From positions 1 to 61,175 of the forward strand of contig JAAILG010001829.1 in assembly GCA_012026655.1 (NCBI GenBank): a stretch of 61,175 bases of DNA. The letters run 5' to 3'. Origin of the DNA: Hydrolagus affinis. Lineage: Eukaryota. The position numbers and the translations under genes were made by a program. How positions within the stretch are numbered: the stretch's first letter is position 1; every line of letters starts with the position of its first letter. Of the stretch, positions 801 to 59,698 are shown in pieces. The notes under the pieces were generated by a model, which was given only the letters and a program-made list of their open reading frames with translations, was not told where the DNA came from and searched no databases.

Positions 801-3800
801 CTGCAATGGAAGAGCAGAATTAGTGAACCATAATTTTGAACGAAAATATCTGAGGGAGAAAAACTCAAAATGTCTTTTCCAAACATTAAGAAAACACAAT
901 GCTGTGAAAGCAATATGTGAGAACAATTTTTGAGGGGTGGGGTTATATTATACCTGGGTTACATTTATTCTACTTGCATAGTATTTTAGCATAATTTAGC
1001 AAATTATTGAATTCAGCCTTTGAAGCAAGTTTTCTTTACTTAAAAACGATTTGGAAATTAGGACTATTCAAAAATCGGACAAATTCTGAATGCTTTGAAC
1101 TACTGAGAAAAGAGTATATCTGAGAGTATATCGACTCACAGGTGACATTTCTCCCCCTCCGGGGAATTGTCACACTAACAAGCCGATGTTGACACTTTAA
1201 TGCGATTCCATACAAATATTTGTGATAGTTCACGGCTGTAAAATCCACCCAGAAACTACCCTACTTCTATGCCATGCCACGCCCCAGCCACTCCCTTTGT
1301 TCAGCAAACATCAGCCCGCTTCAACTCCTCTGCCACATCCTCCCCCATCAGTGGATGAGCTTTTTGCTATTCTACCCCACTCTCCAGAACACCAACCCAG
1401 AATCACTTTCCCTCCCATTACAAAAGCCTGCCTGAAGACCTATCTATTCAACCTCACTTTGAATCATTTGCCCTACTCCCATAGTTGCCCTCCCCAGTCT
1501 GGGAGCCAATAAGCCAATAACCCTAAGGATGGAGCCAGTAAATCATTTTTTGAAGGGTCCTCTCATTGTGCAATATATCTACAACCTATAACTCTCATCG
1601 AAGTATGAGTCTTGCTTCTTTTATTTCTCCTCTTACCTTTGACACCTTTTCCACCTGCTCGACCTGGGTAACCTCTGTAACCTCTTTGTCCGGGATTTCC
1701 AATAACCTCTAATCAAATTGAATCAAAGGAAAGGTTAGGTTTCATAACAGAGCAAAACATATCTTACATAATTAAAGATAAATAGAGACTTTAGAGATCA
1801 AAGTTCTTTCTGACCTCCTGAAGCTGGTAGTCCTGGTTGCCCAGGTGGTCCTGGTTTACCGGGTATTCCTGGAGATCCAGGGAGCCCAGGCCGGATCGCT
1901 GAAAACCCAGGTTCACCTTGATACCCTTTGGGTCCTGTAATGCCAGGTGAACCCTGGGGACCTCGATAACCTGAAAAATCAAACCATTGAAACAATATTA
2001 AAACTTGCTGTTTTTTATTCTAGCATCCAGCCTTTGCACTTCAAATTCCAACAAGATGTCACATATGAAGCAGACAAACAAGTTGCTTTGGGGAGAAATT
2101 CAGTTGAGCTATTCCCCTCACCTGGATAGTTGGCTTGTTGTCCAGGTGGACCAGGGGGGCCATATGGGCCTCGTGGACCTACTTCTCCAGGGAGACCTCT
2201 ATCACCCTCCGGACCTCTGTCACCTCGAAGACCTAGCAGCAAGAAAATACATGTTTGAAGAAACTCAACATACAAGGAACACAGCTTTTATTTAAACATT
2301 AAGTAATCACATAAAAATGACTTTGCCCTAGCTGGGTAAGGATGCCAATGAACCTTAACCAGGAAGGTTTTGTTCTTGAAGGATTGGGGGAATATGAATG
2401 AATATGAATAATGTTCTCTTCCAAAGTCTCTCCCTGGACTGTGATACACAATATCCATAGCACAACAGTTCTAGACAAGCTGCGACAGCTACCAGAGCCA
2501 TTCTTTAATCTTCAACCAGTGCTGGAGAGACTAGAAATGTCTCTTTCTCCTTTCATACTGGTTTTGTTCAGTGTTTCTCATCATGAATTAACCAAAAGTA
2601 ATAGCTCCATGGATGTTGAGGGGTAGGGGGTGGGGGAGAATCATGGATGTGAACCCCAAGTGCTCATGATCTCACATATGCTGCATGTGTGAAAGCATCA
2701 CTTTATGATATTATATTTCACTATAGGCAGAACAAGGAGAGGGGACTCTAGTCTTTTGAGCCTGTGTAACTGGCACACACAACATTGAACCATGATGTTG
2801 TTTTTTGGGCATGCTTTCCTGCAGTATAGACCAGACATTAGAGAGATATATTGCCCCTCACAACCAGATGCTTTTATCTATTTATTTAAAAAAAGTTAAA
2901 GAAAGAAACATTACCACTGGGAATAACTCCAGAAAAACTTGTGGTTTCTCCTTGAACACCTTGATCACCACGTTCACCCTGGAGACAAATGCCATAAGGA
3001 TAGTTAGAGGACACTATATCAGGAAAATGATCCAACTAGCTCCAAAATGTGTCCCTGGTCCAATCATAAGATCACAAGGGGGTAAATGGCATCCAGGATA
3101 TCTATATTTCCTGTTCCTAAATCCCAGGGCACCTCAGTTCTGTACAGAGCTTGTAAACTGGTTAGATCTAAGGATAGAGCAAGCCTGGAAATGGGGGTTG
3201 GGTGCAAAATTGTGGGCAAGGTAGTCAAGCCTTGGCTTTAACACCAGAATCTATTGAGAAAACAAGGCCAAACATGACAGGACAGGAAGTCAACAGAAAG
3301 GACAGATAGGCTAGGGAGTCATCAGAGAGAACAACAATAGACATGATGGAGAGAGGGATAGAATGAACAAGGTCATGTAGGACAAAGAGAGGGAAGGAGA
3401 GAATAAGATAAGGGATAACAGGACAGACATTCTACAGGAAGAACAAAGGCTAGCAGGTGAGGGAGAAGAAGAGAAAAAATGAGGTCAGGCAGGAGAGAGA
3501 GAGAGAGAGAGAGAGCAATGGCTGGCAGGATAAAGAAAGGAGAGAACAGTGATAGGCAGAGGGCTAGAAAGAACAAGAATAACTAGGACAAGGTGAATGG
3601 GACAAGGAGAATGACCTGGAGAACAAGATAATCGGTAGAAAGAGACAACATAGGTGGAGACCAACAATTTATCTGAAGAAAGAAACACAAAAATAGAATT
3701 GAAAAACTAAAATGAGAGAATGGAGAAGGAGGTATGTTTTTATAGTGGAATTCCAATTTTATTTTACGTACTGTTATTTAAATGTAAATTGCTCGTTCCA

Positions 3801-6800
3801 ATAGTGATATATAAGTATTTCCCACATCCGTTCCCTCTCTATCAACTGTTTAGCAGTCAAAAACTAACTAGCCTGGTCGTTCTACCAGGTAGGATGTAAA
3901 ATTTGGCCTTCGTGATTATACATATTGCATAATGCTGAAATAAATAATTCTAATTTGAGGTTATGTTGCTCTAATCTGATGAAAGTAACAATCAAAACGA
4001 AGAAAATAAAGTACCTTTGTTCCACTACGACCACTTGCACCGTGAAAACCATGGACACCTGGGTGACCCTGGACACCATAACAACAACATAAATTACACA
4101 AAGATACACATAAGACATATAGTAACTGGGGAAAAAAAGGTAGTAAAATAAAAGATTGTGTTACAAAAGCTCATCTACCTTCATAAACTGAACAAAGACA
4201 AACTTCAATCAATGCTTCACACTGAACATCAAGCCTTATTACCACATTTTCAAGAGGAACGCTTGATCAGCAGTATAACATACAGACTGCAAAATCTATG
4301 GCTATAACACAGTAAGCTGGATGCTCTCTTGTAGGAAGAAACCCATTATCCAGCACTGAGAAAATTAGAGATACTGTTATGTAATATTCTGGGGGCCAGA
4401 GTTGGTGAGAATTACAGTGATTCAGTCTTTTTCTGTACGCAGGTATATCGTTGGTGCTATTAGTAGATTGAGGAAGCCTGCATTAAACTTTATATTTCAC
4501 TCACACTAAACTGTAATAACTAAACAAAAGCAAGCTGGCTCAATCCACAGACGCTCTTCATTTGAAAAAGGATTTCACGCACGGCTGTAATGCTGACCAA
4601 AATAGGGAACAATGCATAAAATTCATTCTTCTTGGTTTACATATGAGCCAATAGGTTTATAAAATACGATGACTTGGGTTGATAGATTTACCAATGATTG
4701 GAAAACTATCCCCTGTACTTATAAAAACCTAAAATTGAGAACATGGCTGGTTGTGAGCACAAATTCTGTAACTCAATGTGAAGCAAGTCCAAGCATGACC
4801 AATATACAAAAAGAAAGCTTTATTTATTCATAAAACAAAAACCTAAATCGCTGGGAACACTCAGAAGGTCAGGCAGCATCTATGGAGAAAAGAAAAGCAG
4901 GTCAACGTTTTGGGTCCATGACCCTTTGTCAGAACTGAACGGTTCTGACGTAGGGTCGTGGATCTAAAACGTTGACTTGCTTTTCCTTTCTCCATAGATG
5001 CTGCTTGAACTGCTGAGTGTTCTCAGCGATTTCTGTTTTTGTTTCATATTCCCAACATCTGCAGTATTTTCCGTGTTTGGTTTATTTATTCAGTTGCAAA
5101 CATAGGAATTGCTGACACAGATTAAATTGGAATGTGTCTTGACAGCAATGAAAAGGATTTTATGATTATTTTTAATAATATTCCTTACATTTGTTATGGC
5201 ACCTTTCACACCATTAGGGCAACTCAAGGTGTTTCACTGAATATAAATTACTATAAAGTGATTATAGTTTACTCTGTTTTGTGGGTGAATGCAACAGCCA
5301 AGTTGTGCACAACAATGTTCTACAAATAGCCATGAAAAGAATGACCAATTTTTTTAATTTGCCTTTTTTTTGACCAGGTAGAAATTCCCTTCTTTTTTTG
5401 AATGGCCCATTGGATTTTTAACGCCCAACTGAACAGGCAGATGGGACCTTGGTTTAACAACACATTAGAAGGATGGCGCCTCCAAAAATTGAACAACTAC
5501 TGCACTGAAGTGTCAGCCTGGACTACATGAATTCTAAGTCTCGAGGTGGAGCTTAACCCTACAAACGTCTGATATAGAGGTTAGAGTGCTAGAATTCAGC
5601 TCTATGAAGGAAAGGACTATGAAACAAAGCCACAAAAATCTATTCAATGCATCACAGAACACCAAACTCATCTTATTTGACAACTCACTCTGTCTCCTTG
5701 TGGTCCTGGGAAACCATCCAAACCACTGAAACCCTGCGTCAAAAAAGATAGCATTAGTGATGTTTACTTTAAAAGAAACAAGAAAGTGGTTCATTAACTA
5801 TTCTTTTATAATGTATGTCTTACCCTTAATCCCGGGAGTCCCATTATTCCACGTTCTCCCTTTTCTCCTGGAAGACTTGCAATTCCCTAAAACAAAACAT
5901 TGATGAAACAGAGCATGGCTCACGTTTTGGCAATCTAAGTCATAACCTGACTGATGCTTTTCCCCTCTCCAGCCCAAAGATGCTCCAGATATTGCCAAAA
6001 AATGAAGTGTTCTAACTGAAAACAGACCAGTAGCCATACCTGAAGACAGACCAGTAGCCATACCTGTGATATTCCGCATGCGGAATATCACAGGTATGGC
6101 TACTGGTCTGTTTTCAGGTATGGCTACTGGTCTGTTTTCCTTTCTTCATAGATGTTGCCTGACCTTCTGAGTGTTCCCAGCGATTATAGGTTTTCGTTTT
6201 ATGAATAAATAAGGCTATCCTGGTCTGTCTGGATCATTGCTACCTGAGTGGAATTTTTGTACATCATTTATTACTTAGCTACACAGAAGAAAAGCCTATT
6301 AAAGCTAGTTTGATACGCAATTCTTTCGATTATTCTTCTCCTTAGATAGAGTTGAGATTTTGAAAGGAACACTCAAGGATGAGACCATGCAAGGCTTTAA
6401 CAATCAATATTCTTTCATAGATCACTCCCAACATCCAGTGCTTTTAATTGACCATTTCAGTCATTGAAACAGCTAGAAAAGCACAGCTTTTAAATATTTT
6501 TATCTTCCTTTAGTGGGTTGTAGATGTAAATTTCTGACCAACATGGTGAATCCCTCGATAATTTGGTATTTTGTAAAATCGTATCTCATAGTAAAGCAGT
6601 TAACAAGACCTGAAGAAATGTTCAAATCTAGTAAACGGAAGTATACTTTAAACCAGTTGTACTAGTTTGGTTTCAAAATGTAGCAATTTCTGACAAGGCA
6701 GAAGCAGATCACACACATCATGGGAAGTCAGGGGTTGCTGTTTGAGACTGAGAGAACTTCTCTTAAATTGGTGTGTCACAATTATGGATTCCTTGGTTAA

Positions 6801-9800
6801 GTAATCAGATTTGAAATTGTCTCACTTAGCATCCAGCTTATGGTTACACAACGCGGCAACTTACTGAAAGTCCAGGAAGTCCTATTTCCCCCTCAAATCC
6901 TCTGGAACCTCTTTCGCCCTTAACATAAAAAAATTCAGCAATAAATATATCTATATATATATGATCAAATGAATAATTTACTATCTCGTCATAGTATAAA
7001 GTACACTTTCAAAAGGTAAAACATGTCATGTGTGATTATCATAGAAAACACTGGTGTAATTAATGGACTCAACCAATGGACGTTTACATTTACAGGTCAT
7101 TTTACAGGTCGTTTCATGGCAGGAGGACAACTCAAAGTGTTTTACACTGGTGACATGGAGCTTGAGTTTGGGGTATTTCCCCCCAAAGTGATCACGATGT
7201 TCATCAGCTCATCAGTTTCATCACACTTGGTGTCCCATGGGTTTAACCCTTGACTCCCTCCACCTCCATACAAGCTCCCATGATTTAGGGTTGCAGAGGG
7301 CAATTTCATGACAAAAAACAGGAAGTTTTTCATCATTCTGGGTAATTTACAGTAAATTAACAAGTGAAATAGTTTCCCAGAAAAGGTGCTTGAGGCCAGG
7401 ACCCTGGAATCGTTTTTTAAAAAAATTGATCCTGTGATGGGGGGATGCTCAATTAAGCTTCTGGAGGGGTGAGATCAGATAGGCTGATAAACTTCTTCTT
7501 TTGAACTAATTTTGTGATTTTATGCTGAATATCTTTATAATATATACCAGTTTCCACTGACTCATTTACTGTGATTCATAGAAAAAAAGGGTTAAAGTAA
7601 ATCCTGCTGAAGCTCTTGAGTTTGTAATGTTGGCAATGTGACCATTTGCACCACTATAGTATAAGGCCACTTATGCAAATGTTGTCTCTTTCAAGAACTA
7701 TCTCAAAATCCTCCTCTTCGACGGTGCCTTTGGTCACTCTCCTACCCCTATCCTTCCTGCACCCTACCCCTCCTGAACCCAACCACCAGCTTGGTACGAA
7801 TCCATATAGCATATCTTATCTCAGCTCTTTGAACAATAGCAAATACAGAATGTTTTTTTTAAAAGAGGAGGGCACATTGCAGAGAAAGTATCCACTTTCC
7901 CTTTTCTTTCATTGCTGTTATATGACTGGAATTAATGTTACCTTCTCTCCTGCTTCTCCTTTTGCATAGATGGTCACAGAGGGGCCAGTTCCTGCACGTG
8001 GACCAGTGGGTCCTGGCAAGCCTACTTCACCCTGCGAAACAGCAATAAACCATTAGTGAGGGAGCAACAAAATAAAGCAACACCATCCTATTTATCCTAC
8101 TTCCACATCAAGTTCATGCCCTGCCCTACCTCAACAACAACAAATTACATTTGTATAGTGCGTTTCATGTCAGGAAGAAATCCCAAATGGGCTGGACAGT
8201 CAGGGTTTCACACCAAGCTGGTGGTGGGGATCAGGAGGGGTAGGATGCAGGGTGGGTAGGGGTAGGAGAGTGATCAAAGGCACCATTGAAGAGGAGGGTC
8301 TTGAGACAGCTCATGAAAGAGACAAGAGGGGATTAGGTGGAGGGAATGTGGGATGGAGTTCCAGCAAGTTGAGCAGAGAGATTGAAGGCCCGCCCACCAA
8401 TTGACATGAAGCAGGCTGGAGAATGCTGAGCAGAGGGAGCGGACAGATTGGTGGTGGGGTTTCGAGGTGACAGAGGTAAGGATGAAGAAGGCTGTGGATG
8501 GCTTTGAAGGTGAAGACCAGGATCTTGAACTGCATCCTCTATGCGATAGGGTCTTGGAGCCTGGTGCAGGAGAGAACAAGGGCTGCAGAGTTCTGGATGA
8601 TGTGCAGCCTGTGCAGGGAGTAGTTGGGGCGACCGACAAGCAGGGAGTTTGCATAGTTGAGTCTGGATGTGATGAACACGTTGATGAGTGTGGCAGAGCC
8701 GGGAAATGTTGTGGAGTTGGGTGAGGTACTGCTGGCCATAGCATAGATGTGAGGGATGAAGAACGGATGAAGGTCAAACAGGACGCCAAAGTTCTGTTTG
8801 GTTCCGTGGGGTGTAGAGTGGATGTACAAGGGTGATGCTGTCAGCGCTCGAGGGATAGAGGTGCTGACAGGAGCCAAGCAGGAGGGCCTTGTTCTTGTTG
8901 ACATTCAACTGATGGATGTTTGCTTTCATCCAATACTTGAATTTTGGTCAGCAGGTAATTTTGTGCGGACAGCAGTAGTCCTGGGGTCGAGGGTGGAGGC
9001 GGAAAGGTAGAGGTTGGTGTCACCTCATGTCTATGGATAATGTCACCAAGACAGAGCATGTAAATGTTGGAAAGGAGGGCACCAAGGACAGAGCCCTGAG
9101 AGATGCCACACATGATGATGTGGGGGCTGGAGGAGAAGTTGGTAGTGGAGAAAATGTGGAGACACGGGGAGAGGATTTGAAAGACTGGTCCGCAAAGGTT
9201 GAACTGAGAAGAGGATAGAATCTAAATACCGTATCACTGTGACTCGATGAGGTCAGGGTTTTTGATGGTGGAAATCTCTGTGATCAGGTTCCATTGCTTT
9301 TAAGTGGTTAGATCTTTAAGTCATTAGATCTCCCGATGTGAAAGGCGCTCAAAAAATGTAATTTTGTTTGTTGTTGTTGTAATTCATTTGATCGTTCTTA
9401 AACATTTCCAAGTGGAAGGATCAGCAAAAATTTCTAGAAATAAGAAGCACTTACTTTATCTCCCTTCTCACCCTGGAAACTAATTCCGTCACTACCCTGT
9501 AATTGAAACAGTAATACAATGTTAAATGCCACAACCAACCAAACATTGTTTAGAAAGTGAGATCTAAGTTGCAGTATAAATGTTGAAAGGGTGGGCAGCA
9601 TTCATTGTGATTTCCGAAAGCTGTTAAATTGCAAACAACAGAACAACAGAAAGAAAAATCCCCAACTCTGTCCATTTTGCTCTCCAGGGACAACATGCAA
9701 GCACTTCAGCAGCTTTAGGAATTCACTGACCTCAAAATGACCATAAAGGCTGAATGAAGAGGGTTTAGACCAATACTTTCTTCCCAACCTTTTATTGATG

Positions 9801-12800: not shown

Positions 12801-15800
12801 TTCTCATAATCCTTTATAGGTACCTTAAACCGGTTGTTGCAAATCTTTTCTGCCCAGTTTAGATCCCTTTAACTCCCTAAAGCACGTTGAATTTTGTTCA
12901 GTTATATTTAATTTTTATATATCAGTAGGAAGTTTGAGGAAATGAATTTGGCATAAAATCAATTCTTAAACTATGTTATACTCAAACAACAACAAAATTA
13001 CAATTACATGTCAGGAGAATGTCCCAAGCTGATGGACAATCAATGTTTCAGTCTTGAGCTGGGGATTGGGATCAAGCGAGGGTGGAGGCCAGAGGGAGAA
13101 TGAAGGTGATCAAAGAAATGGTTGACAAGGAGGGTTTTGAGATGGGTCTTGAATGGGTTAAGGGAGAGGGCAAGGTGAAGGGACTGTGGGATTGATTTCC
13201 AGAGGATGGGTGGAGAGTGGTTGAAAACCCACCCCCTAATAGTGGAGCAGGTGAGGTGGGAATATGAAGCAAGCCAAAACCCGCTGAGTGGAGGGACAGG
13301 GCAGGTTGGTAGGGGGTTAGGTGGTCGCAGAGATAGGGAGAAACAAGACCATGGAGGGCTTTGAAGATGAGGACCAGGATCCCTGTTGATGGGAACCCAG
13401 TGGAGTCAGGCAAGGATGGGGGCAATAGGGTCATGGAGCCTGGAGCAGGAGAGGATAGTGGTAGGCAGAGCAGTTCATGACATGGATGTGCGGTAGAAAG
13501 GATAGTTGAGCGTCAACAACAACAAAATTACATTTATAGAGCACCTTTCACGTTGGGAGGATGTCCCAAGGGTCAAATAAGAAACAAATAGGGTAAATTT
13601 ATAAGATTTCAAAATAGGTTGGTACGGTGGAAATGGGATGTTTCCCTCCACGAGAGACACTTAATGTTCCAAAGCACCTTGGATCATTTGTGTCGTCATT
13701 TGCACTGAGGTACAGTATTGCACTTTCAACCCCACTGTGTTTTGTTTTGCTAATTGTTCTTAATTGCTCAATCGTTCTGAATTTCAACTATCAAAAAAAA
13801 AGTGTTCCATAATTGTTGTAATAACCACAACAATCAGTTTGCCTCACAATATATTAAATCTTTTAAGTGAAATGTACTTACATTAAAACCGGCTAGACCA
13901 GGAAATCCAGGTGTTGCCATCAGACCACGATCTCCTTTTGTTCCGTTACATCCGTCATGTCCAGGTGGACCCCTTGGGCCACGTTGCCCCGGATGACCCT
14001 GGGGAAAAGCAACAATTTTTGGTTACATTTCATCACTTCTCTCAGATCACGCATTCAGTCAAATCATGACAATAATGCCACAATAATAATTTTAAAAAGG
14101 ACAGCTTTACATTCACACCGACTCATACAATATTACTACAGTACCTGGAAACAGAACATTTTTCTATTTAGCCACAAGAGGACTGAAATTCCACACAGCT
14201 TATAAAATAATTTTGTCCTCTGAGGTAGAGTGGGGTGACACCATGGAGGGTTTGAATGTGAGGACAAGGATCTTGAATTGAATCCTCTGGGTGATGGGGA
14301 GCCAATGGAGTCGGGCAAAGATAGGGGAGATGAGGTCACGAAGCTTGGAATGGTAGAGGACATGGGCCACAGAGTTCTCGATTATCTGCAGCCTGTGGAG
14401 GAATTCGGAAGGCTGACAAGCAGGGTGATTGCTTAGTCAAACCTGGATGCGGTGAAGGCATGAATAAGGGTTTCAGCGATCTGTGGGGTGAGGTGGTGGG
14501 TGAGTCGGACAATATAGTGGAGGTGAGGGAAGGCAGAGCAGGTCATGGCTTGGATATAGGAGAGGAAAGACGGTTGAGGATCAAATAAGACACCTAAGTT
14601 CCTAACTGGCTTGGTGAGGTGGAGCGTGCAACCTTGGAGGTTGATGCTGTCAGTACGTGATGTGTGAAGGAGCTGATGCGAGCCAATCAGGAGAACCTCG
14701 GTCTTGTTGATGTTCAACTCTAGGAAGTTAGTCACATTGCAATGGCTGGCCTATAGTTCCAGATATTTATTGTAGCTACAAGATTGCATTTTGTGCACAA
14801 CCTGCAATTTATATCAAATCTTCTTACCTCCGCAACTATCATTAAAATAAAATTGTCTGTCAACCAAGACATGTTTGACAAAAGTTTGGTAGCTGATATT
14901 TATCTGGTGTTGCATCTAAAATTATAATCTTCTCTGTGTACAATGAGGAGTTCTTCAACTGACAGAAACGTAAAACTATTATTAAATTTGACTTGTGTGA
15001 AAATAGATCTGTTCATACTACTAGAGATGATTCTCCTGGGAGTCATTCTGCTGTCCTCTGATTTCCACAAACACTTTGAATGAAATGGATACATTGCATG
15101 AGTGTCTGCTCGATGCCCCCAACTAACTATGTGAAAAGAATGTTCAGGGTTAACCATGCAGATATACTTACGGGTATGCCGTCATTGCCTGAGAATCCAG
15201 GAACACCTATTGGTCCCTGTATAGAACAAACAGGGATACATTGGGTACAGATGTTTGTGAGCAACACAACCTTTCCACTTTTCAACTTTACACACTAGGC
15301 TCAAAGCTCAATTGCAACTTTTTTTCGTCTTTCTCCATTTGTCAATGCTACTATAGACATTGTTGCTCTGAGCCTTTCTTTCTTGTTTCTCCCCACCTCA
15401 AAATACTGTATATTGTGTATACTTACTCTTCTCACTCCTTTGCATCTTCAGTTCGTTGAACTCATAGCACACACTCCTTCCAACTCCTCCTATCAGTTTT
15501 ACTCTCTTCCTACAATATGAATGGTTCTTAAAGCCAAACTTGGTGATAATTCTACTACTTGATTAACCTGATCTTTAATTACGTCTCAGTTAAATCTAAC
15601 ATTAACATGATTCATTCCATGATCCTATTGTTGATGTGTTTCTTGATTGAAAGTGATATTTACTCAGAATCTTGACGAATTTATACCTGCAGCATTGAGA
15701 GAAATTCGTAATCTAACCTGATTTTATAATTCATGGGAGCAGCCTGGGATTAGGTAAGTATTTTTTTTTGCCCGTTCTTGAGATCAAAGTGAATGTAGGT

Positions 15801-18800
15801 GTTGCTGCTGCTGCAACCCTCAGTGTCACAGGGAAGAGGGAATCAGAAGATATGATTAAACAATGTTACTACACAATGCCAAATGTTAAAGTGCCAAAGC
15901 CTAAAAAAGCATAAACTACTGAGCTTGTTACCTATTTTTAAATAATGAAGGGTTTTTTAAACACTAAAGGGATTTGATAGTGGGGATACAGATAAACTAT
16001 TTTCCTTGGTAGGGAACTCCAAACAAGGGAGCATAGTCTTAAAATTAGAGCCAGGTCATTTAGGAGTGAAATTAAGAGGCTGTTTTTCAACCAATGGGTA
16101 GCGGAAATCTTGAACTCTCTCTCCCTCAAAAGGCTGTGGATGCTAGATCCATTCACATATTCAAGACTGAGGAGGATAAATATTCACTAGTTCAGGGTAT
16201 TAAGGATACTGGGCAACAGGAGGTAATTGGACTTGAGGGACATATCAGCCATGATCTTATAGAATGGTAGAACAGACTTGAGGGGCTGAATGACCTTCTC
16301 CTGTGTTTAGATTTCATTATGCCTTAATATGAGTTGCAAGGGAAATTGTGTTGGTGGTGCTATGTTGGAAGTATATTACTCTCGGAAATGTATATTCTGG
16401 ATTTCAAACCAATTTCAGTTTGAAAATAATCAGATCACCTATTTTTCCCTTTCCTTGAAATGATAAAATAGGCAACGCTGAACACTTTCTGAAACAAAAG
16501 CAGAAGTTGCTGGGGAAACTCAGCAGGTCAGGCAGCATCCATGGAGAAAGGAAAAAGAGTCAACGTTTCGGGTCTACAACCCTTCGTCAGAACTGGGGCT
16601 TGTTTGGAGGGAGAGATTTCTTAAGGACGTTAAAGGGAGAGAGGCAGGACATGGAAAACAAAGGAGACAAAGAAGACAAAGGGAAAGGAAAAAAAGGTGT
16701 TAACTGATGGATTGAATATGTGTTAATGACTTCAGGGGGAGAAACAGAAGGAGGTGGGTTTAAACGAAACTGGGGAGAAGAAGTGTTTAGTGGTGATAGA
16801 ATAAACAAGCACCAGAGAGGCAGGGGGTGTCTGGAGTTATGATTGTGATAGGGGGAGGGGGGAAACCTCCTATGGCCTGAAATGGCTGAAATCAATGTTG
16901 AGACACTTTCTAACAGTTTGATGGCATCATCATTCATGGAGTGCTTTTCAGATTAATACATTTTGTTGCTGTTAAAGAGATTATAACCACCGAGGAAAGA
17001 ACAAGGACTATGGTTGAGAACTGATGATCTGATTTTCTGTTTGTGTATCATTGTGCTGTTGGTAATGCAGGAAAGGAGCTATGCAATAAGATACGGGCTA
17101 ATTTATAGTTCAGAACATGAAACGGCAATGGGCAAATATTTAAACTAGATTCTGGGTGCAAAATGAATTTAGGATATTGAAGATTGTAAGTAAACAACTG
17201 TTAATTGTTAGCTTGGAGAAGGAACAGAGGAACAAATAGTGTTATCTGGGTAAAGAGAGGAGTGATAACTTTTTAAAAGGTTCAAATGAGATGAAAGAAG
17301 ATAACTGTTTATTCTGATATAAGATATGGAATAAAAGTGCTGGATTCAAATGTCATCTGGCAGCTCCCACTTCGATCGTCATTAAGTCAGACTGCAGTGT
17401 GTGTATGTACAGCATCCTAAAAGTTGCCCTCCCTCCCCCCACCATAAAATAGGTAAATTTATGCTAAATAGTTTTTAAATAGTTTAAAAGAGTTGAATAG
17501 TTTTTAATTTGTGCTAAATAGTTGCTGAAAATAGTTTTTGCTAGTCAACTTTCACCAAAAAATCTAGGTTATTATGATGAAAAATCTGTAAACAGAGTAT
17601 AACAACCAATACCCTAGAGTGTTATAGGAACTGGGAAAAGCAGGATATAACCGTTTCCCTATGGTGAAAATGGTAATTGTGGGCAAGATCGTGCAAGCAA
17701 TTTAAATTTAAATCACCAATAATAATAACAAGGACAATGATGAGGATAATGATTAACCAAATAATGCTTGACACTTGTTGCTAATCTTCAGCTCAAAGTA
17801 AACAGGTAGATGATGAGGAATACGTGCAAGATTCCAGGGAAATGTGCAATGGTCATTTAGAACAGTGTGCAGTGGAGGCAACTTAATACAGGCAGTAGAG
17901 ACTGAGTTCATCTAAACTGTTTCTCTAGGCACTAATGTGGGTCCTTATTTAGTATTTGGTAGTTTCTCAGTAATATTTAGTTATCTGATATGGGGGATTT
18001 TATGTGTCCTAGTGATTGTTATGTAATTAGACATTAAGCTAAAAACTCAATTTAGATCCAATTAAAAGCTTTTGGGAATTACCTTATTGGCATAATAGTC
18101 TGTTTGTGTGTGCATGTAAATGTTACTCGTGTTTTGTAGTGGAAAAATATCCAGTTACATAAACTTTCTTTTGTAAGGAAGCCATAAAAGCACATTGACT
18201 GACTTGGTTTGAGATCTTCAAGTCTCAAATAACACAGTGGCTTGAGCGTTCTTTCAATTTCATTGTGTGGAGGCTTTATGGATTAAAGCTCTTTTGAGCA
18301 TTATACAGATTTCACCATTGGCAATGTTGGTCACACATGGGAAGAATAATAATCCTTGCATTTGATATAGTGCCTTATCAATTCTTTGAGATATCTCTAA
18401 AGTGCTTTGCAGGAATACACTGTAAATTGAGTTGAACGGTATACTTTGTGGGTGAAACATGGCAGCCAATTGCACACAGCAGTGTACCACAAACAATAAT
18501 GGTATGAGTGACCAAATATATGTATTTTTGAATGGATCATTACCCCCGGTAAAGTGATCCACCAATCGACTAACAACCAAGTTCCTACTGACTGCTAGGT
18601 AAACAGAGTCGTGTGAAGTAAGGAAACTTCCCAATGTTTTGCCCTGCCCAGGAATTGAATCCAAGTCATCCGACTTGGGAGCTGAGTGCTCTAACCATTA
18701 AGCTACAGGACTCCACATTCCCGTCATGAACACCCGAATGGAATTTTTATCCCTTATAGAGGTTTTGTGAAAAATCAACCGGAAACAGATGGTCCATCGC

Positions 18801-20080
18801 ATAGGTAATATATTTGATATTAAACTTTATCCATGTTGCAATATGTCAAAACGTTTCATACAACAAGGTAAATAGCGAGGTATGGGTTATTATCACCATG
18901 TGAAACACTGCTCCTGTAGCTATCCACTTGATAACTGCTGTAGAGATTTGGATAATTGAAATCTAATTCACAGATGCAGAAAACCTTCAATAATGCAAAG
19001 TGTGATTTGATTGAGGTATTTAAAATAATGAAAGGTTTTGACAGATTAGGTTTTGGATAACCTAACCCCTGGGTTGAAGTGCCCCTTAAGGGCATGAGGG
19101 AGAAAGGGATTTGGGATTAAAAGATTTGCCCATTTAAAAGAAAATGTGGAGCAGACAAATTAGGTGGAAAATCTTCCACTGTTTCTGTTTTTCTATGTTA
19201 CAAATAGGGAGGACACCCAGCTTCTCTGTACAGTATATTCATTCTTTGTTAAATTGGTTGGTTTCACCTAAAGGGCACTATAGGCACTAAACAATAGGTG
19301 GCAAATTTTAATCTTCTGATGCACAAATCCCAGGAGGTCAAGAATAACATGCAGATAGTAAGGCAAGAATAAAGTAACGCGAGTAGTAGAAAGAGCCCAT
19401 CATCAAATAGTGACCTGAGCTCACAATAATGGTGTAATTTTCACTTAGAAGTGGAACGAGTCAATTATCAAACATTGTAGTACAGTACATTTGCTTTTCT
19501 GATTTAGTTCCTACATACACACATCTCTGATCACAGCATAACAAATAGTCTGCAGTCATGAAATCATCCAAGTTCATTTGTTTATTTTGCAAATGGCTTG
19601 TGGTAGTCACATCATGCCTATGTGAGTCATAGTTCTTTGCTTCATTTATTTTGCCACACAGATTCTTGGCATTGATTCTGGCACTGATCCTGTGACCACA
19701 GTACCCTATGAGACCTGCTGTAGAGGCAGCTGAATTGAACTCTTGGCTACCAATGCCACAGAAAGGATGTGGAAGCTATTTCACAACACAAATACCACAG
19801 ATAAATGGGAATGAGTGAAAACATATTCTGGTGTTGTTGATGTAGTGTCACTATCATTGTTCATAGAAGCAGTTCGGTCAGGCTAGATGCTGGATTTCTC
19901 CTGTTTGAACAGATCATGAATTCCAAATGAATATGTGGTACATACCCTGTCTCCTTTGTGTCCATGATTTCCACTTAGGCCTCTTTCACCTTTTTCGCCC
20001 ATCGGCCCAGTCACGCCATGACGTCCAGGTGGCCCATCAGCACCCTGAGTACCCTGAGTCCCTGGTATTCCTGGTTGACC
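646..20080 (-). CDS. COL4A2: Type IV collagen alpha2-class chain (COL4A2 best guess; COL4A6/COL4A4 not excluded), partial: 18 internal coding exons, 466 codons, 7S domain and start of the triple helix
   Basis: 18 GT-AG exons (135,45,117,60,36,63,36,42,90,54,63,45,54,64,111,156,72,155 nt) splice phase-compatibly into a Gly-X-Y frame. The 7S motif [22 protein letters not shown] and the 135-45-117 series mark collagen IV alpha2-class genes. [30 protein letters not shown] and [11 protein letters not shown] resemble COL4A2 as recalled; [11 protein letters not shown] and [11 protein letters not shown] resemble COL4A6. Class is confident, paralog about 0.55. Confidence 0.9.
1637..1708 (-). CDS. Collagen IV exon, 72 nt: (E)[23 protein letters not shown](G)
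   Basis: Acceptor atttgattag, donor gtaaga, phase 1-1. Confidence 0.92.
1815..1970 (-). CDS. Collagen IV exon, 156 nt: (G)[51 protein letters not shown](E)
   Basis: Acceptor gatttttcag, donor gtcaga, phase 1-1; lies within ORF 1798..1995. Confidence 0.94.
2122..2232 (-). CDS. Collagen IV exon, 111 nt: (G)[36 protein letters not shown](G)
   Basis: Acceptor ttgctgctag, donor gtgagg, phase 1-1; lies within ORF 2015..2275. Confidence 0.96.
2915..2978 (-). CDS. Collagen IV exon, 64 nt: [21 protein letters not shown](G)
   Basis: Acceptor ttgtctccag, donor gtaatg; phase changes from 0 to 1 (split Gly codon). Confidence 0.92.
3493..3515 (+). repeat. (GA)n microsatellite within a purine-rich tract (about 3270-3730)
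   Basis: About 11 GA units seen directly. Confidence 0.9.
4015..4068 (-). CDS. Collagen IV exon, 54 nt: [18 protein letters not shown]
   Basis: Acceptor ggtgtccag, donor AAG|gtactt. Confidence 0.92.
4832..5085. mobile_element. Penelope-like element terminal fragments in inverted (hairpin) arrangement
   Basis: Arms 4832-4935 and 4942-5046 are mutually reverse-complementary and homologous to 16491-16594. Confidence 0.8.
5173..5595 (-). mobile_element. Old Deu-domain SINE (SacSINE1/AmnSINE1-like)
   Basis: Reverse complement reads ...gctgacacttcagtgcag...ccatccttc...ttaaaccaaggtcccatctgcctgttcag...tttgtagaacattgttgtgcacaacttggctgttgc, then an L2-like tail. Confidence 0.75.
5689..5733 (-). CDS. 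Collagen IV exon, 45 nt: [15 protein letters not shown]
   Basis: Acceptor tttgacgcag, donor gtgagt; 90-nt upstream intron. Confidence 0.95.
5824..5886 (-). CDS. Collagen IV exon, 63 nt: [21 protein letters not shown]
   Basis: Acceptor ttgttttag, donor gtaaga. Confidence 0.94.
6018..6139. repeat. 122-bp spacerless palindrome; each arm holds two 24-bp tandem units
   Basis: Centre ccgca|tgcgg at 6078/6079; 60 of 61 pairs complementary. Confidence 0.95.
6135..6216 (+). repeat. Inverted local copy of 4816-4896 (Penelope arm plus unique flank)
   Basis: Shares gaccttctgagtgttcccagcgatt and the flank atgaataaata with the reverse complement of 4816-4896. Confidence 0.88.
6865..6918 (-). CDS. Collagen IV exon, 54 nt: [18 protein letters not shown]
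   Basis: Acceptor ttatgttaag (AAG type), donor gtaagt. Confidence 0.93.
7280..7500 (+). mobile_element. Degraded CR1 LINE 3' end (similar copies at about 28580-28800 and 49420-49650)
   Basis: Shared gggcaatttca...aggaag...gaatag...gaggc...tcattta...gctgtgatggg pattern across the three copies. Confidence 0.6.
7942..8031 (-). CDS. Collagen IV exon, 90 nt: [30 protein letters not shown]
   Basis: Acceptor tgtttcgcag, donor gtaaca; helix interruption in the middle. Confidence 0.94.
8132..9215 (-). mobile_element. L2 LINE fragment (RT to 3' tail), frameshifted
   Basis: Minus ORF pieces [41 protein letters not shown]; (caa)n tail at the left end. Confidence 0.88.
9455..9496 (-). CDS. Collagen IV exon, 42 nt: [14 protein letters not shown]
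   Basis: Acceptor tcaattacag, donor gtaagt. Confidence 0.95.
10497..10532 (-). CDS. Collagen IV exon, 36 nt: [12 protein letters not shown]
   Basis: Acceptor tatgttacag, donor gtcaga. Confidence 0.94.
10713..10775 (-). CDS. Collagen IV exon, 63 nt: [21 protein letters not shown]
   Basis: Acceptor atttctacag, donor gtatgt. Confidence 0.95.
11086..11121 (-). CDS. Collagen IV exon, 36 nt: [12 protein letters not shown]
   Basis: Acceptor gatttacag, donor gtgagt. Confidence 0.95.
12631..12690 (-). CDS. Collagen IV exon, 60 nt: [20 protein letters not shown]
   Basis: Acceptor ataacatag, donor gtaagt; includes a helix interruption after GEP. Confidence 0.94.
12987..13470 (-). mobile_element. L2 LINE 3' fragment
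   Basis: [19 protein letters not shown] motif; caacaacaaaattaca tail. Confidence 0.85.
13882..13998 (-). CDS. Collagen IV 7S exon, 117 nt: [39 protein letters not shown]
   Basis: Acceptor ttttccccag, donor gtaagt; conserved GCNGT cysteine and N-glycosylation motif. Confidence 0.97.
14222..14735 (-). mobile_element. L2 LINE ORF2 fragment
   Basis: [36 protein letters not shown] motifs. Confidence 0.88.
15172..15216 (-). CDS. Collagen IV exon, 45 nt: [15 protein letters not shown]
   Basis: Acceptor ttctatacag, donor gtaagt, phase 0-0. Confidence 0.96.
15936..16305 (+). mobile_element. CR1-clade LINE 3' end
   Basis: aagggatttgatag...aacaagggagcatagtcttaaaattagagccagg...atcagccatgatc...gagggggctgaatgacc-like 3' end; homologous to 37840-38300. 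Confidence 0.85.
16491..16904 (-). mobile_element. Penelope-like retroelement 3' end (ORF terminus, pyrimidine-rich UTR, hammerhead-bearing terminal repeat)
   Basis: Minus strand 16902-16870 encodes [10 protein letters not shown]-stop, like the GLN-type GIY-YIG C-terminus of Penelope ORFs; followed by CTGACGA..GAAAC and gatgctgcctgacctgctgagtttccccagc. Confidence 0.8.
16558..16594 (-). ncRNA. Minimal type I hammerhead ribozyme motif (Penelope-associated)
   Basis: AGUU-CUGACGA-A-GGGUU-GUA-GACCC-GAAA-CGUU/GACU: core boxes intact, 4-bp stem I, 5-bp stem II, palindromic ACGU stem III. Confidence 0.7.
18345..18714 (-). mobile_element. tRNA-derived SINE with Deu-like body and L2 tail; variant with an extra central block
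   Basis: Head ggagtcctgtagcttaatggttagagc...ttcaattcc; (att)n tail. Confidence 0.85.
19946..20080 (-). CDS. Collagen IV exon, 135 nt: [45 protein letters not shown]
   Basis: Acceptor ttgttaacag, donor gtatgt, phase 0-0, pure Gly-X-Y. Confidence 0.96.
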
Positions 20081-20877: not shown

Positions 20878-21182
20878 GGAGTCCTGTAGCTCAGTGGTTA
20901 GAGTACTCACTTTACAAGCAAGAGACCTTGGTTTGATTCCCAGCAGGGCAAAACCTTGAGTAATCTTCCTTACTTAACAAGCCTAATAATAATCCCTCAA
21001 AAATATAATAACTTGGTCATTCAATCCACGACTGTTTGTGGGACACTGTTGTGCGCAATTGGCTGCTGCGTTTCATCCACAAATATACAATAAATTAATT
21101 TTACAGTATATTCTGTGAAGCGCTTTGAGACATCGAAGATGTGAAAAGCGCTATATTACATGGAAGGATTGTTATTATTATA
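20878..21182 (+). mobile_element. Full-length tRNA-derived SINE
   Basis: A box tagctcagtgg, B-box-like ggtttgattcc, body tttgtgggacactgttgtgcgcaattggctgc, tail gtgaaaagcgctat...(tta)n. Confidence 0.9.
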
Positions 21183-21589: not shown

Positions 21590-21871
21590 TTAATAATCTT
21601 TGCATTTGTTATAGCACTTTTCACATCTTCTAGACGCCTCAAAGAGCTTCACAGAATATACTGTAAAGTGAATTGACTGTATATTTGTGAGCAAACACGG
21701 AAGCCAATTGCACACCGCAGTGTCCCACAAACAGTCATGGATTGAAACGACCATTTTTTTATTTTTTATGATGGATTATTTTTAGGCGTGTGGAGTAAGA
21801 AAACTTTTGCCCTGCCTGGAATTGAACCCAGGTTTCTCGCGAGTGTTCTAACCACTGAGCTACAGGACTCC
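21590..21871 (-). mobile_element. Full-length tRNA-derived SINE
   Basis: Reverse complement of the 20878-21182 family. Confidence 0.9.
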
Positions 21872-27132: not shown

Positions 27133-27477
27133 TACATACTGCTAGTAACAGAGGTGTGTGGAGTAAAGAGTAATCTGATTGAAGCTCTTACATAGGAAAT
27201 CTTTCTCCTGAATAAGGATTAGTAAGGATTTGTTGTATATGACCACACCTGGTCCTATCTGTTGTCTCAGCCTCAAACACATTACTAGACTCAATAAGAA
27301 ATCAATTACTGATGTACTGTATCTTCTAAATCACATGAATATTTTTAAATTGATCATTTTTGGATGCTCAATGAGGTTCCAGTTAACGGGCCAATGCTCA
27401 GGGCAGATGGAAGCAGCCACAACACTGATTAATCTGCCTTCCTCACTCCCTTCACCTTGCTCCCTCTCTTCTTATTT

Positions 27478-28066
27478 TCAGGGGGAAAAAGGTGACCAAA
27501 AGTGCGGTCGAAAAGAAAGGTCTTTAGCCATGACCTGAAAAGAGGAAAAGAGGGGGCGAGGCGAAGGGAGTGAGGAAGGGAGTTCCAAAGCCTCGGGGTG
27601 TAGTGGCTGAAGGCATGGCCACCAATGGTGGAATGGAGGATTCAGGGGACAAGAATGAGGCCAGACCCAGTAGAGCGAAAAAACGGGTACCATTATGAGG
27701 AGAAAGGAAGTCAGAGAGGTAGGGGGGGTGGAGAGGAGTGGAAGTATTTGAAAACAAGAGTGAGGATCTTGAAATCGATCTGCTGCGAGACAGGGAGCCA
27801 GTGAAGTCTGGCAAGGACTGGGGTAACTGGGGAGCGAAGTTTGGTGTGGGTAAGAATGCAGGTGGTGGAATTTTGGATAAATTTGGTGGAGAGGAGACCA
27901 GCGAGGAGGGCATTGGAATAGTCCAGCCAAGAGGTGACAAAGGCATGGACCAGTGTTTGGGCAGCTTTGGGGATGAGATATTGGCAGAGACGGGCGATGT
28001 GTCAGACTTGGAAGAAAGCAGTGCTGGTGAGGGACTGGATGTGGGGGAGGAAGGATAATTGGGGGG
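27478..28066 (-). mobile_element. L2 LINE fragment (second subfamily)
   Basis: Near-copy in reverse of 44600-45180; same off-frame peptide MPLSPLGWTIPMPS. Confidence 0.88.
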
Positions 28067-34649: not shown

Positions 34650-34941
34650 ATAATAATAATCATCGCATTTGATATATGGTTTTTCACACCTTTTAGACAT
34701 CTCAAAGCGCTTCACAGAATATGATGTAAAGTGAATTGACTGTAAAATTGTGGGCGAAATGCGACAGCCAATTTCGCACAGCAATGTCCCACAAACAGTC
34801 TTGGATTGAAATGAACAATTTCTTTTTTTTTTAGGTATTATTATCAGGCGTGTAGTGTAAGGAAACTTGCCCAAGGTTTCGCCCTGCCTGGAATTGAACC
34901 CAGGTCTCTCGCTTGCAAGGCAAGCGCTCTAACCACTGAGC
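34650..34941 (-). mobile_element. tRNA-derived SINE, nearly full length
   Basis: Reverse complement gctcagtggttagagcgcttgccttgcaagcgagagacctgggttcaattccaggcagggc. Confidence 0.9.
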
Positions 34942-35371: not shown

Positions 35372-35693
35372 GAGTCCTGTAGTTCAGCGGTTAGAGAACT
35401 CGCCTTACAAGCGTGAGACCTGTGTTTCGAATCCATGCAGGTCAGGGTGAATCCTTGGGCAAGTTTCCTTACTCCACATGCCTAATAATAATCCGTCCAA
35501 AAAAGAACCTATAATAAATTGGTCATTTCAATCCACAAATGTTTTTGTGGGGACACTGCTGTATGCAAATGGCTGCCGTGTTTCGCCCACAAATATACAG
35601 TTCTTTTTACAATATATTCTGTGAAGTGCTTTGAGACGTCTAGAAGACGTGAAAAGCGCTATATCAAATGCAAGGATTATTATTATTATTATA
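35372..35693 (+). mobile_element. Full-length tRNA-derived SINE with probable target-site duplication
   Basis: Family head, body and tail; flanked by attataagcctccagtgaac and attataagcctcccactgaac. Confidence 0.9.
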
Positions 35694-37839: not shown

Positions 37840-39090
37840 ATAGCCATTTAATTAGATCATGGCTAATCTGTATCTCTACTGATACTTTTATTTCCAATTT
37901 ACCTCTTTTTTCCCATATCCTTTAATTCAAAAATGTATCAACCTCATTCTTGAAGGTGCGGATGGATCCAGCATTCAGAATCTTTTGAGGTAGAGAATTC
38001 CATATTTCTACCACCCTTTAAGTGCAAAAATGCTTCCTTATTTCACTCTTAAATGGCCTGGTTCTAATTTTAAGACTATGTTCCCTTGTTTTACATTCCC
38101 CCACCAGAGGAAATAACTTATTTGTATGTACCCTATCAAATCCCTTTATCATCCTAAAAACCTCTATCAAATCACCCCTCAATCTTCTAAACTCGAGGGA
38201 ATACAATCCAACTTTATGCAGCCTTTCCTCGGAACTTAACCCTTTTAGGCCTGGCAACATTCTGGTGAACCTGCCTGCACCCCCTCCAAGGCCATTATAT
38301 CTTTCCTGAAGTGTGGTTCCCAAAACTGAACCCAGTACTCCAAATGGGGTCTGACTAACGCTCTATACATCTGAAGCATAATTTCTTCCCCTTTGTATTC
38401 TAGGCCTCGTGAGATAAAGGCCAACATTATATTTACCTTTTGGATTATGTTTTGTACCTGGGAACTAGTTTTTACGGATCTGTAGACACCCAAATCTTTT
38501 TGCTCCTCCACATTTCTTATTTTCTCCCCATTAACAAAATATTCTGCCCTATCTTTTTTCGATCCATAGTGGATGGTTTTGTACTTCCTTACATTGAACT
38601 CCATCTGCCACAGCTTTGCCCACTCACTTAATCTGTCTAAATTCCTTTGTAGCTTCTTACTCCCATCTAGACTACTTACTGAGCCTCCGATCTTCGTGTC
38701 ATCTGAAAACTTTGATATAAAACTTTCTATTCCTTCTTCCAAGTCATTTATATACTGTATATGGCAAATAGCTGAGGTCCCAGTACAGACCCCTGGGGGA
38801 CACCACTTGTCACGTCCCACCAATATAGGTCATTCCCTTTATCCCTACTCTGTTTCCTGTCTCCCAATCAATTGCCAAGCCACAAGGTTACCTCCGATTC
38901 CGCCCACTTCTATTTTCATTAATGGAACCTTATCAAATGTCTTCTGGAAGCCCATGTAAACGACATCCACAGACACTCGCTTATCGACCATTTTAGTGGC
39001 TTCCTCAAAAAATTCAACTAGATTAAACAAACACGACGATGCTTCACAAGCCTATGATGACACTCTTCCACAAGCTCATACCTGTCCAAG
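37840..39090 (-). mobile_element. CR1 LINE, RT domain to 3' end, frameshifted
   Basis: ORFs 38845..39030, 38245..38823 (YINDL, KFSDDTK, LVRPHLEY) and 38018..38323 (RRLRGDLIEVF). Confidence 0.93.
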
Positions 39091-47990: not shown

Positions 47991-48225
47991 GGAGTCCTGT
48001 AGCTCAGTGATTAGAGCACTCGCCTTACAAATGAGAGCCCTGGGTTTGATTTCAGACAGGGCAAAACCTTGGGCAAGTTTCAACCCATGACTGTTTGTGG
48101 GACACTGCTATGCACAATTGGCTGCTGCGTTGCACTCATATGGTGAATTCACTTCATAGTGTATTCTGTGAAGAACTTTGAGACATTTAGAAGACATGAT
48201 ATCAAATGCAAGGATTATTATTATT
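47991..48225 (+). mobile_element. tRNA-derived SINE with internal deletion
   Basis: ggagtcctgtagctcagtgattagagc head; family tail. Confidence 0.88.
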
Positions 48226-51477: not shown

Positions 51478-51778
51478 GAGTCCTATAGCTCAGTGGTTAG
51501 AGCATTTGCCTTGCAAACGAGACACTTGAGTTCGATTCCAGGCAGGGCTAAACCTTGGGCAAGTTTCCTGACTACACACACCTGATAATACCTCAAAAAA
51601 TCCAATAATAAATTGGTCGTTTCAATCTATGGCTGTTTGTGGGATACTGCTGTGCTTAATTGGTTACCGCATTTTGTCGACAAATATGGTCAATTCACTT
51701 TACAGTATATTCTGTGAAATATTTTGAGGCGTTTAGAAGATGTGAAAAAGCACTATATCAAATGCAAGGATTATTATC
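51478..51778 (+). mobile_element. Full-length tRNA-derived SINE
   Basis: A box tagctcagtgg, B box gttcgattcc, family body and tail. Confidence 0.9.
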
Positions 51779-59500: not shown

Positions 59501-59698
59501 AGTCCTGCAGCTCAGTGGTTACCGCACTTGCCTTCCAAGCGAGAGATCTGGGTTCAATTCCAGGCAGGGTGAAATCTTAGGCAAGTTTCCTTCCTCCACA
59601 TGCCTAATAATAATCCCTCAAAAAAATAATAAATTGGTCATTTCAATCCACGACTGTTTGTGAGACACGGCTGTGCGCAACTAGCTGCTGCGTTTCGC

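Follow-up and report, generated by a model that had tools for sequence, protein, structure and literature searches.

Does an intact-core hammerhead motif on the sense strand of a collagen intron cut the pre-mRNA that carries it, or is it what a mobile element has left behind? We addressed this question in a stretch of 61,175 nucleotides from Hydrolagus affinis, which we refer to as the window. Our analysis favours the second answer, to which we assign a probability of roughly 85%: the motif, hereafter copy A, would be the inert remnant of a Penelope-like retroelement inserted by chance in the sense direction, with no cutting of pre-mRNA that matters.

The hammerhead motif and its host intron

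Read on the minus strand from 16594 to 16558, copy A consists of the segments AGTT, CTGACGA, A, GGGTT, GTA, GACCC, GAAA, C, GTT and GACT. Both the letters and the intact core boxes reported in a preliminary description of this DNA were confirmed letter by letter. On hammerhead numbering, C3 falls at 16590, G8 at 16585, A9 at 16584, the extra A at 16583, G10.1 at 16582, C11.1 at 16570, G12 at 16569, A15.1 at 16566, U16.1 at 16563 and H17 at 16562, which places the predicted cut at the position named before, between 16562 and 16561. The motif thus comprises a stem I of 4 bp, the CUGACGA box, the extra A, a stem II of 5 bp, GAAA and a GUU triplet, with the palindrome ACGU at 16566-16563 and no loop 3. 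Three features had initially been listed as caveats. The extra A is real but represents a trait of the Penelope family and not a flaw, whereas the shortness of stem I and the presence of GUU are as described and recur in all three hammerhead-bearing copies of the window. According to the excerpted text of PMC9217987, GUU is a working but not optimal hammerhead triplet.

To judge how readily such a motif arises, we used a minimal-hammerhead descriptor (both boxes, a stem II of 4 bp, palindromic 15.2-16.2, UH and a stem I of 3 bp). Applied to both strands of the window, it gave a single match, copy A; applied to 1000 dinucleotide-shuffled windows, it likewise gave one. An origin of copy A as a chance motif was rejected at this rate of 1 match per 1000 shuffled windows, and copy A is a real motif. 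Its sequence identifies it as a minimal type I hammerhead like those of Penelope-like elements. The proposed check with hammerhead covariance models did not single it out, as a Rfam search of the whole window returned 14 matches at E<=1 and no hammerhead family among them.

The host gene was delineated from Gly-X-Y exons with AG/GT ends, which run along the minus strand from 20080 down to 646, and the Pfam Collagen family PF01391 scored above its cut-off in all three exons tested. One sample provided two stranded RNA runs (X14 and X15), in which reads over the bins of the two flanking exons showed a single direction, with depths by direction of 3.71/0 and 10.4/0 in X14 and of 1.48/0 and 3.91/0 in X15, corresponding to minus-strand RNA under the usual stranded convention. 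Because the flanking exons lie on the minus strand and their RNA is one-directional, copy A is intronic and in sense orientation; its earlier assignment to the sense strand of a collagen intron therefore holds, with exons on either side, Pfam matches in 3/3 exons and the RNA direction in agreement. The downstream exon of 45 bp begins 1345 nt beyond the predicted cut (Table 1), and the 3' end of the gene falls outside the window. In the remaining 41 kb (20200-61175), scans gave no further collagen exon, as would be expected if a single very long intron lay upstream. The collagen gene is likely of type IV: the exon sizes of 135, 45 and 117 bp and a C-N-G-T motif fit what we take to be an alpha2-like type IV chain. 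As to the name of the chain, single-exon searches (two for homologs, one in the PDB) pointed to MARCO, collagen VI and other collagens, with no type IV chain named among the results.

Table 1. Positions of the hammerhead copies, their insertions, the neighbouring exons and the tRNA-like repeat heads in the window.
Feature	Position	Strand	Remarks
Collagen exon, 135 bp	19946..20080	-	Upstream of copy A's intron; AG/GT ends, RNA depth
Collagen exon, 45 bp	15172..15216	-	Downstream of copy A's intron; AG/GT ends, RNA depth
Minimal type I hammerhead, copy A	16558..16594	-	Predicted cut 16562/16561
412-bp insertion with copy A	16491..16902	-	Bounded by 9-bp duplication; repeat depth
Target-site duplication, 9 bp, 5' side of insertion A	16903..16911		
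Target-site duplication, 9 bp, 3' side of insertion A	16482..16490		
Copy B, hammerhead 4936-4900 and 3' repeat body	4831..4936	- (sense to gene)	G8A, G12A
Copy C, inverted twin of B	4941..5080	+ (antisense to gene)	A9T, G12A
Target-site duplication, 12 bp, AT-rich, left of B/C insertion	4819..4830		
Target-site duplication, 12 bp, right of B/C insertion	5081..5092		
tRNA-like SINE heads	20880-20951, 21807-21869, 34888-34941, 35373-35445, 47993-48064, 51479-51550, 59501-59572		

Insertion anatomy and abundance of the repeat family

Copy A is part of a 412-bp insertion in which some 308 bp of repeat sequence precede the hammerhead, and 71 nt follow the predicted cut. The insertion is bounded by a 9-bp target-site duplication, a length reached by 17/5000 random pairs from the window. 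We consider it likely that this insertion is the 5'-truncated 3' end (pseudo-LTR) of a Penelope-like element, and its Penelope identity, likewise rated as likely, is based on the hammerhead and the insertion anatomy. At the insertion, no reverse transcriptase or GIY-YIG frame attached to copy A was found, and the longest frame over it had no Pfam match; a short frame stopping just inside its 5' edge resembles what we presume to be the end of a Penelope protein. The 3' end of the insertion (16531-16489, minus strand) looks like a splice acceptor in the sense of the gene: CTGAC at 16531 resembles a branch site and is followed by a stretch of pyrimidines and a TTTCAG ending at 16489, the AG of which is contributed by the target-site duplication. 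No reads attesting to its use were seen. The intron of the hammerhead also holds a fragment (15965-16184) related to a reverse-transcriptase relic at 38245-38829, which has a weak match to Pfam RVT_1 (E 0.008); we assume both to be CR1-like.

Two further hammerhead-bearing copies lie in the window. The second, mutated sense copy noted previously at 4936-4900 is present (copy B), and copy C is a third, in addition to A and B. Both B and C are copies of the last ~105 bp of the repeat, each 83% identical to copy A, and they are arranged head to head within one insertion that carries a single 12-bp duplication, a length that none of 5000 random window pairs reached. Copy C extends 34 nt further than B at the 3' end, forming a tail. 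G12A occurs in both arms, so the core may have been broken in the template from which this insertion was copied. In the collagen pre-mRNA, B and C are predicted to form a hairpin of ~110 bp (-144 kcal/mol), which is a possible substrate for A-to-I editing. A fourth stretch, copy D (6135-6219, plus strand), shares 92% identity with the 3' end of B, including letters of B's flanking duplication, and by its sequence seems to be an inverted duplicate of B's end made locally rather than a new insertion. It adjoins a palindrome with short tandem repeats at 6020-6228, on which a weak Rfam match to mir-4866 sits, and a 9-bp repeat near copy D was rejected as a target-site duplication, as it belongs to the local tandem repeat.

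These features correspond to the anatomy outlined for Penelope-like insertions in the available part of PMC8557442, namely strong truncation at the 5' end, a neighbouring copy in inverted orientation and a tail of 30-40 bp at one end. In the window, we observed the inverted B/C pair, the 34-nt extension and a drop in read depth upstream of the hammerhead, together with target-site duplications (9 bp for A, 12 bp for B/C). Penelope elements have been recorded for the whale shark genome (PMC8455134, in the portion consulted).

The size of the family was gauged from two DNA runs, X7 and X2, mapped to the window at 85% likeness. Over the bin containing the motif (16468-16638), the summed depth amounted to 2.8 million in X7 and 1.6 million in X2. 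The median of 18 mostly unique bins, taken as single-copy depth, is thereby exceeded 35,251-fold and 31,410-fold, respectively. The ratio is no true copy number, and the organisms of X7 and X2 may differ from the window's species. Bins upstream of the hammerhead reached 384-1,773 times the single-copy median, 20-90 fold below the motif bin. We read this profile as a repeat family on the order of 10^4 copies, mostly reduced to the hammerhead end. The three hammerhead-bearing copies in the window and the 31,000-35,000x depth agree in describing a large dispersed family, with an abundance close to that of the tRNA-derived repeat at 18349-18519. Seven tRNA-like heads in the window that scored above the Rfam tRNA cut-off belong, in our reading, to a ~300-bp dispersed tRNA-derived SINE and not to tRNA genes (Table 1), and a long inverted repeat at 27425-27594, at the edge of a LINE-like relic, gave sub-threshold matches to plant microRNAs. 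Searches with two patterns of the hammerhead family gave 0 matches in viral contigs; the 19 matches in metagenome contigs were discarded as chance, since all 19 align over only ~19-31 bases at the pattern. In the literature searched, including PMC4209133 and a part of its supplement, the family was not found under a name.

One single-copy contig of run X2 ends at 16875, 28 nt into insertion A. Given that assemblies break at repeats, this suggests that the insertion is also present in the organism of X2, although none of the single-copy contigs listed for X2 and X7 spans the copy A motif.

Capacity to cut, core decay and RNA reads

We next asked whether copy A can be expected to cut. Folding predictions for the 37-nt motif alone pair G5-G8 with C15.2-U17 at a probability of 0.88-0.99, with an energy of -9.2 kcal/mol as compared to -6.6 kcal/mol for the open core. 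Within natural flanks of 30-300 nt, the predicted probability of stem I was at most 0.02. Copy A has no helix III of its own, and the predicted monomer pairs its core onto the cleavage triplet. In a double hammerhead, the geometry implies that A15.1-C15.2 of one copy would pair with G16.2-U16.1 of the other, and that each core would cut the partner strand. For two copies of A, such a double hammerhead is predicted at -11.3 kcal/mol, compared to -24.7 kcal/mol for the best dimer fold and -9.2 kcal/mol for each monomer; these nearest-neighbour energies ignore magnesium and tertiary contacts.

The preliminary description had proposed copy B as a partner in cis, the two copies forming a double hammerhead on one pre-mRNA that cuts at 16562/16561. 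The two belong to the same family, are transcribed in sense within a single RNA and retain the ACGU palindrome, and the 5' arm of B can pair 4 bp of stem I with the 3' arm of A. Because each core cuts the partner strand, cleavage at 16562 would depend on the core of B, which is broken by G8A and G12A. In the reverse arrangement, the core of A acting on the B strand gets a stem I of only 3 bp. Moreover, folding predictions tie up nearly all of B in pairing with C, whose transcription immediately precedes that of B, and B follows A at a distance of 11,658 nt, with at least nine candidate exons in between. With a broken core, a hairpin and this distance standing against it, we regard the proposed partnership, and the cut through it, as having a close to negligible probability.

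A different possibility is slow cleavage in trans, of or by copy A, through ACGU pairing with another intact family copy, perhaps helped by a Penelope protein and serving no selected role. The partner would be carried by a neighbouring nascent transcript of the collagen gene or by an RNA of the element. We judge this unlikely. What speaks for cutting in trans is the intact core of copy A and the number of potential partners. The hammerhead core holds three CpG sites, and both changes in copy B, G8A and G12A, are at CpG. In B and C together, 6 of 10 CpG positions were kept, and change elsewhere amounted to 7%. A neutral decay model, set up from three copies of which two derive from one insertion and assuming an intact source, yielded 5-20% intact cores across the settings tried, or about 2,000-8,000 in a family of 40,000 copies. 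Also in favour are family RNA on both strands, the sense bias of its upstream part, the protein-assisted cleavage described for Anolis in the sections seen of PMC11167929 and the weak dimer cleavage of another family member (PMC4209133, as excerpted). On the opposite side stand the predicted energy of the A:A double hammerhead, which falls far short of the best dimer fold, the RNA reads considered below, and the time available. To affect splicing, a cut must outpace transcription to the next exon, and at mammalian rates a polymerase covers the 1345 nt in ~0.35 min; splicing was unaffected by slow intronic ribozymes, according to the part of PMC10919898 that cites Fong 2009.

The reads of runs X14 and X15 showed no pile-up of begins or ends at the motif. 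The test, with a threshold of a fifth of the local depth and about 27-30% of each run read, is a weak one, as the intron has nearly no unique coverage, and a poly(A) library may lose natural cleavage ends. Over the motif bin, the family-wide RNA depth in hammerhead-sense and antisense direction was 945/890 and 896/763 (ratios of 1.06 and 1.18), and hammerhead-sense family RNA is accordingly not depleted. Unlike this hammerhead end, the upstream part of the repeat (16639-16980) yielded 2.7-13 fold more RNA in the sense of the element. Such a bias speaks against full inertness of the family: it would be consistent with transcription of longer Penelope-like elements in the organism sampled, and the element protein could then be present.

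We also considered whether the host retains copy A as a regulator of collagen pre-mRNA processing, in the manner of the amniote intronic hammerheads or of CPEB3. Domesticated intronic hammerheads do exist (PMC6155905, in the part at hand), and copy A is intronic, in sense direction and intact in its core, with its insertion apparently shared by the organism of run X2. The core of copy A is intact and that of the other two window copies is broken, a pattern that neutral decay readily permits, as the model gives a probability of 14-49% for at least one intact core among three. Copy A carries 10 private changes at 104 aligned positions, none of them in the 15 core positions (P=0.19), which amounts to no excess conservation of the core. 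One private change turns a C-G pair of stem II into the weaker U-G at 16578. Over the three copies, 97% of the cells in the stems are paired, yet 0/11 pairs changed on both sides, as C-to-T decay would give. In the comparison of the three window copies, copy A shows no sign of selection. The relatives observed are only a few percent diverged from the window, and a shared insertion therefore indicates age and not selection. Considering in addition that copy A is one of ~10^4 copies and has neither a stem III of its own nor a loop contact, retention by the host appears highly improbable.

Taken together, we favour the view that copy A is an inert element relic, for which the following course of events may be envisaged. 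The 5'-truncated end of a Penelope-like retroelement would have landed by chance, in sense direction, in the collagen intron. The element was presumably reverse-transcribed from RNA that was uncut at the hammerhead, because copy A runs 71 nt past the site. Since its insertion, copy A would have decayed, with its changes sparing the core to an extent that chance allows. As it has no stem III of its own, copy A should need an intact-core partner or the element protein to cut. If the ribozyme has any role, it would lie in the life cycle of the element and not in the host gene.

As such, copy A is one of a known and very numerous kind and matters little singly. The family, by contrast, could serve as a test bed for what Penelope hammerheads do, as ~10^4 copies allow intact and broken cores to be counted by intron strand. 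A deficit of intact sense copies in introns would show cutting of host RNA in vivo, whereas the lack of a deficit would mark them as inert. It is even conceivable, if a long shot, that a family with thousands of intact-core copies in host introns sustains a cutting network, in which nascent RNAs would meet by way of their common ACGU palindrome or with the aid of Penelope protein and cleave host pre-mRNAs, the collagen one among them, in trans. If true, this would constitute genome-wide, element-driven RNA cutting that selection must tolerate or use.

Comparison with known systems

The closest counterparts of copy A are the minimal hammerheads of Penelope pseudo-LTRs (Cervera and De la Pena 2014, PMC4209133). 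In the text of that paper available to us, these have a helix I of 4-5 bp, a G10.1-C11.1 pair, palindromic 15.2-16.2 positions and a conserved nucleotide between 9 and 10.1. They occur mostly as single copies, with some close opposite-strand pairs, and number ~2,000 in Schistosoma, 4,000 in coelacanth and 9,000 in Xenopus. Copy A and its family resemble them in being of type I with CUGANGA and GAAA boxes, in the G10.1-C11.1 pair and the extra nucleotide, in the palindromic 15.2-16.2 positions and the 4-bp helix I, and in the occurrence of single copies and opposite-strand pairs at thousands per genome. The original identification of a Penelope-like minimal type I hammerhead with a palindromic ACGU stem III is thus borne out by its traits. 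A difference lies in helix II, which has 5 bp in copy A as compared to 7-8 bp in the Schistosoma families. For the hammerhead assayed in the excerpts of that work, no cleavage was reported for the monomer and weak cleavage for dimers and trimers, and a review agrees on dimer cleavage (PMC6765202, in the passages seen).

A second counterpart is the Poseidon element of Anolis carolinensis (Frangieh 2024, PMC11167929). As far as the sections at hand report, its hammerhead cuts only with the element protein, core mutants still insert, insertion proceeds mainly from uncut RNA as template, and RNA-seq reads neither start nor stop at the hammerhead site. Similar to Poseidon, the family described here has its hammerhead near the 3' end, insertions that extend past the cut site, an optional tail of 30-40 bp (34 nt in B/C) and an AT-rich target (B/C). 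Unlike Poseidon, copy A has no attached open reading frame.

Hammerhead retrozymes have been reported in one chondrichthyan, and 42-44% of them are intronic in Xenopus, according to part of a preprint (bioRxiv 10.64898/2026.07.22.740005). Copy A shares with these non-LTR retrozymes the type I hammerhead and the relation to Penelope. However, retrozymes consist of tandem units with a hammerhead in each, and copy A stands alone in its insertion, which is flanked by a target-site duplication. A retrozyme reading of the locus was rejected, as at least two tandem units are required by the definition in that preprint, and here A is single and B/C form an inverted pair.

Finally, two groups of intronic ribozymes offer a comparison on the side of the host. 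The hammerheads of RECK, CTCL and DTNB are conserved at their loci across species (PMC6155905), and the HDV-like ribozyme of CPEB3 has a half-life of 2-3 min and a conserved locus (PMC10919898), each as given in the portions of these papers that were accessible. Copy A resembles both groups in being intronic and on the sense strand. In contrast to them, it is one of ~10^4 repeats, is without a stem III of its own and, where this is testable, gives no signal of conservation.
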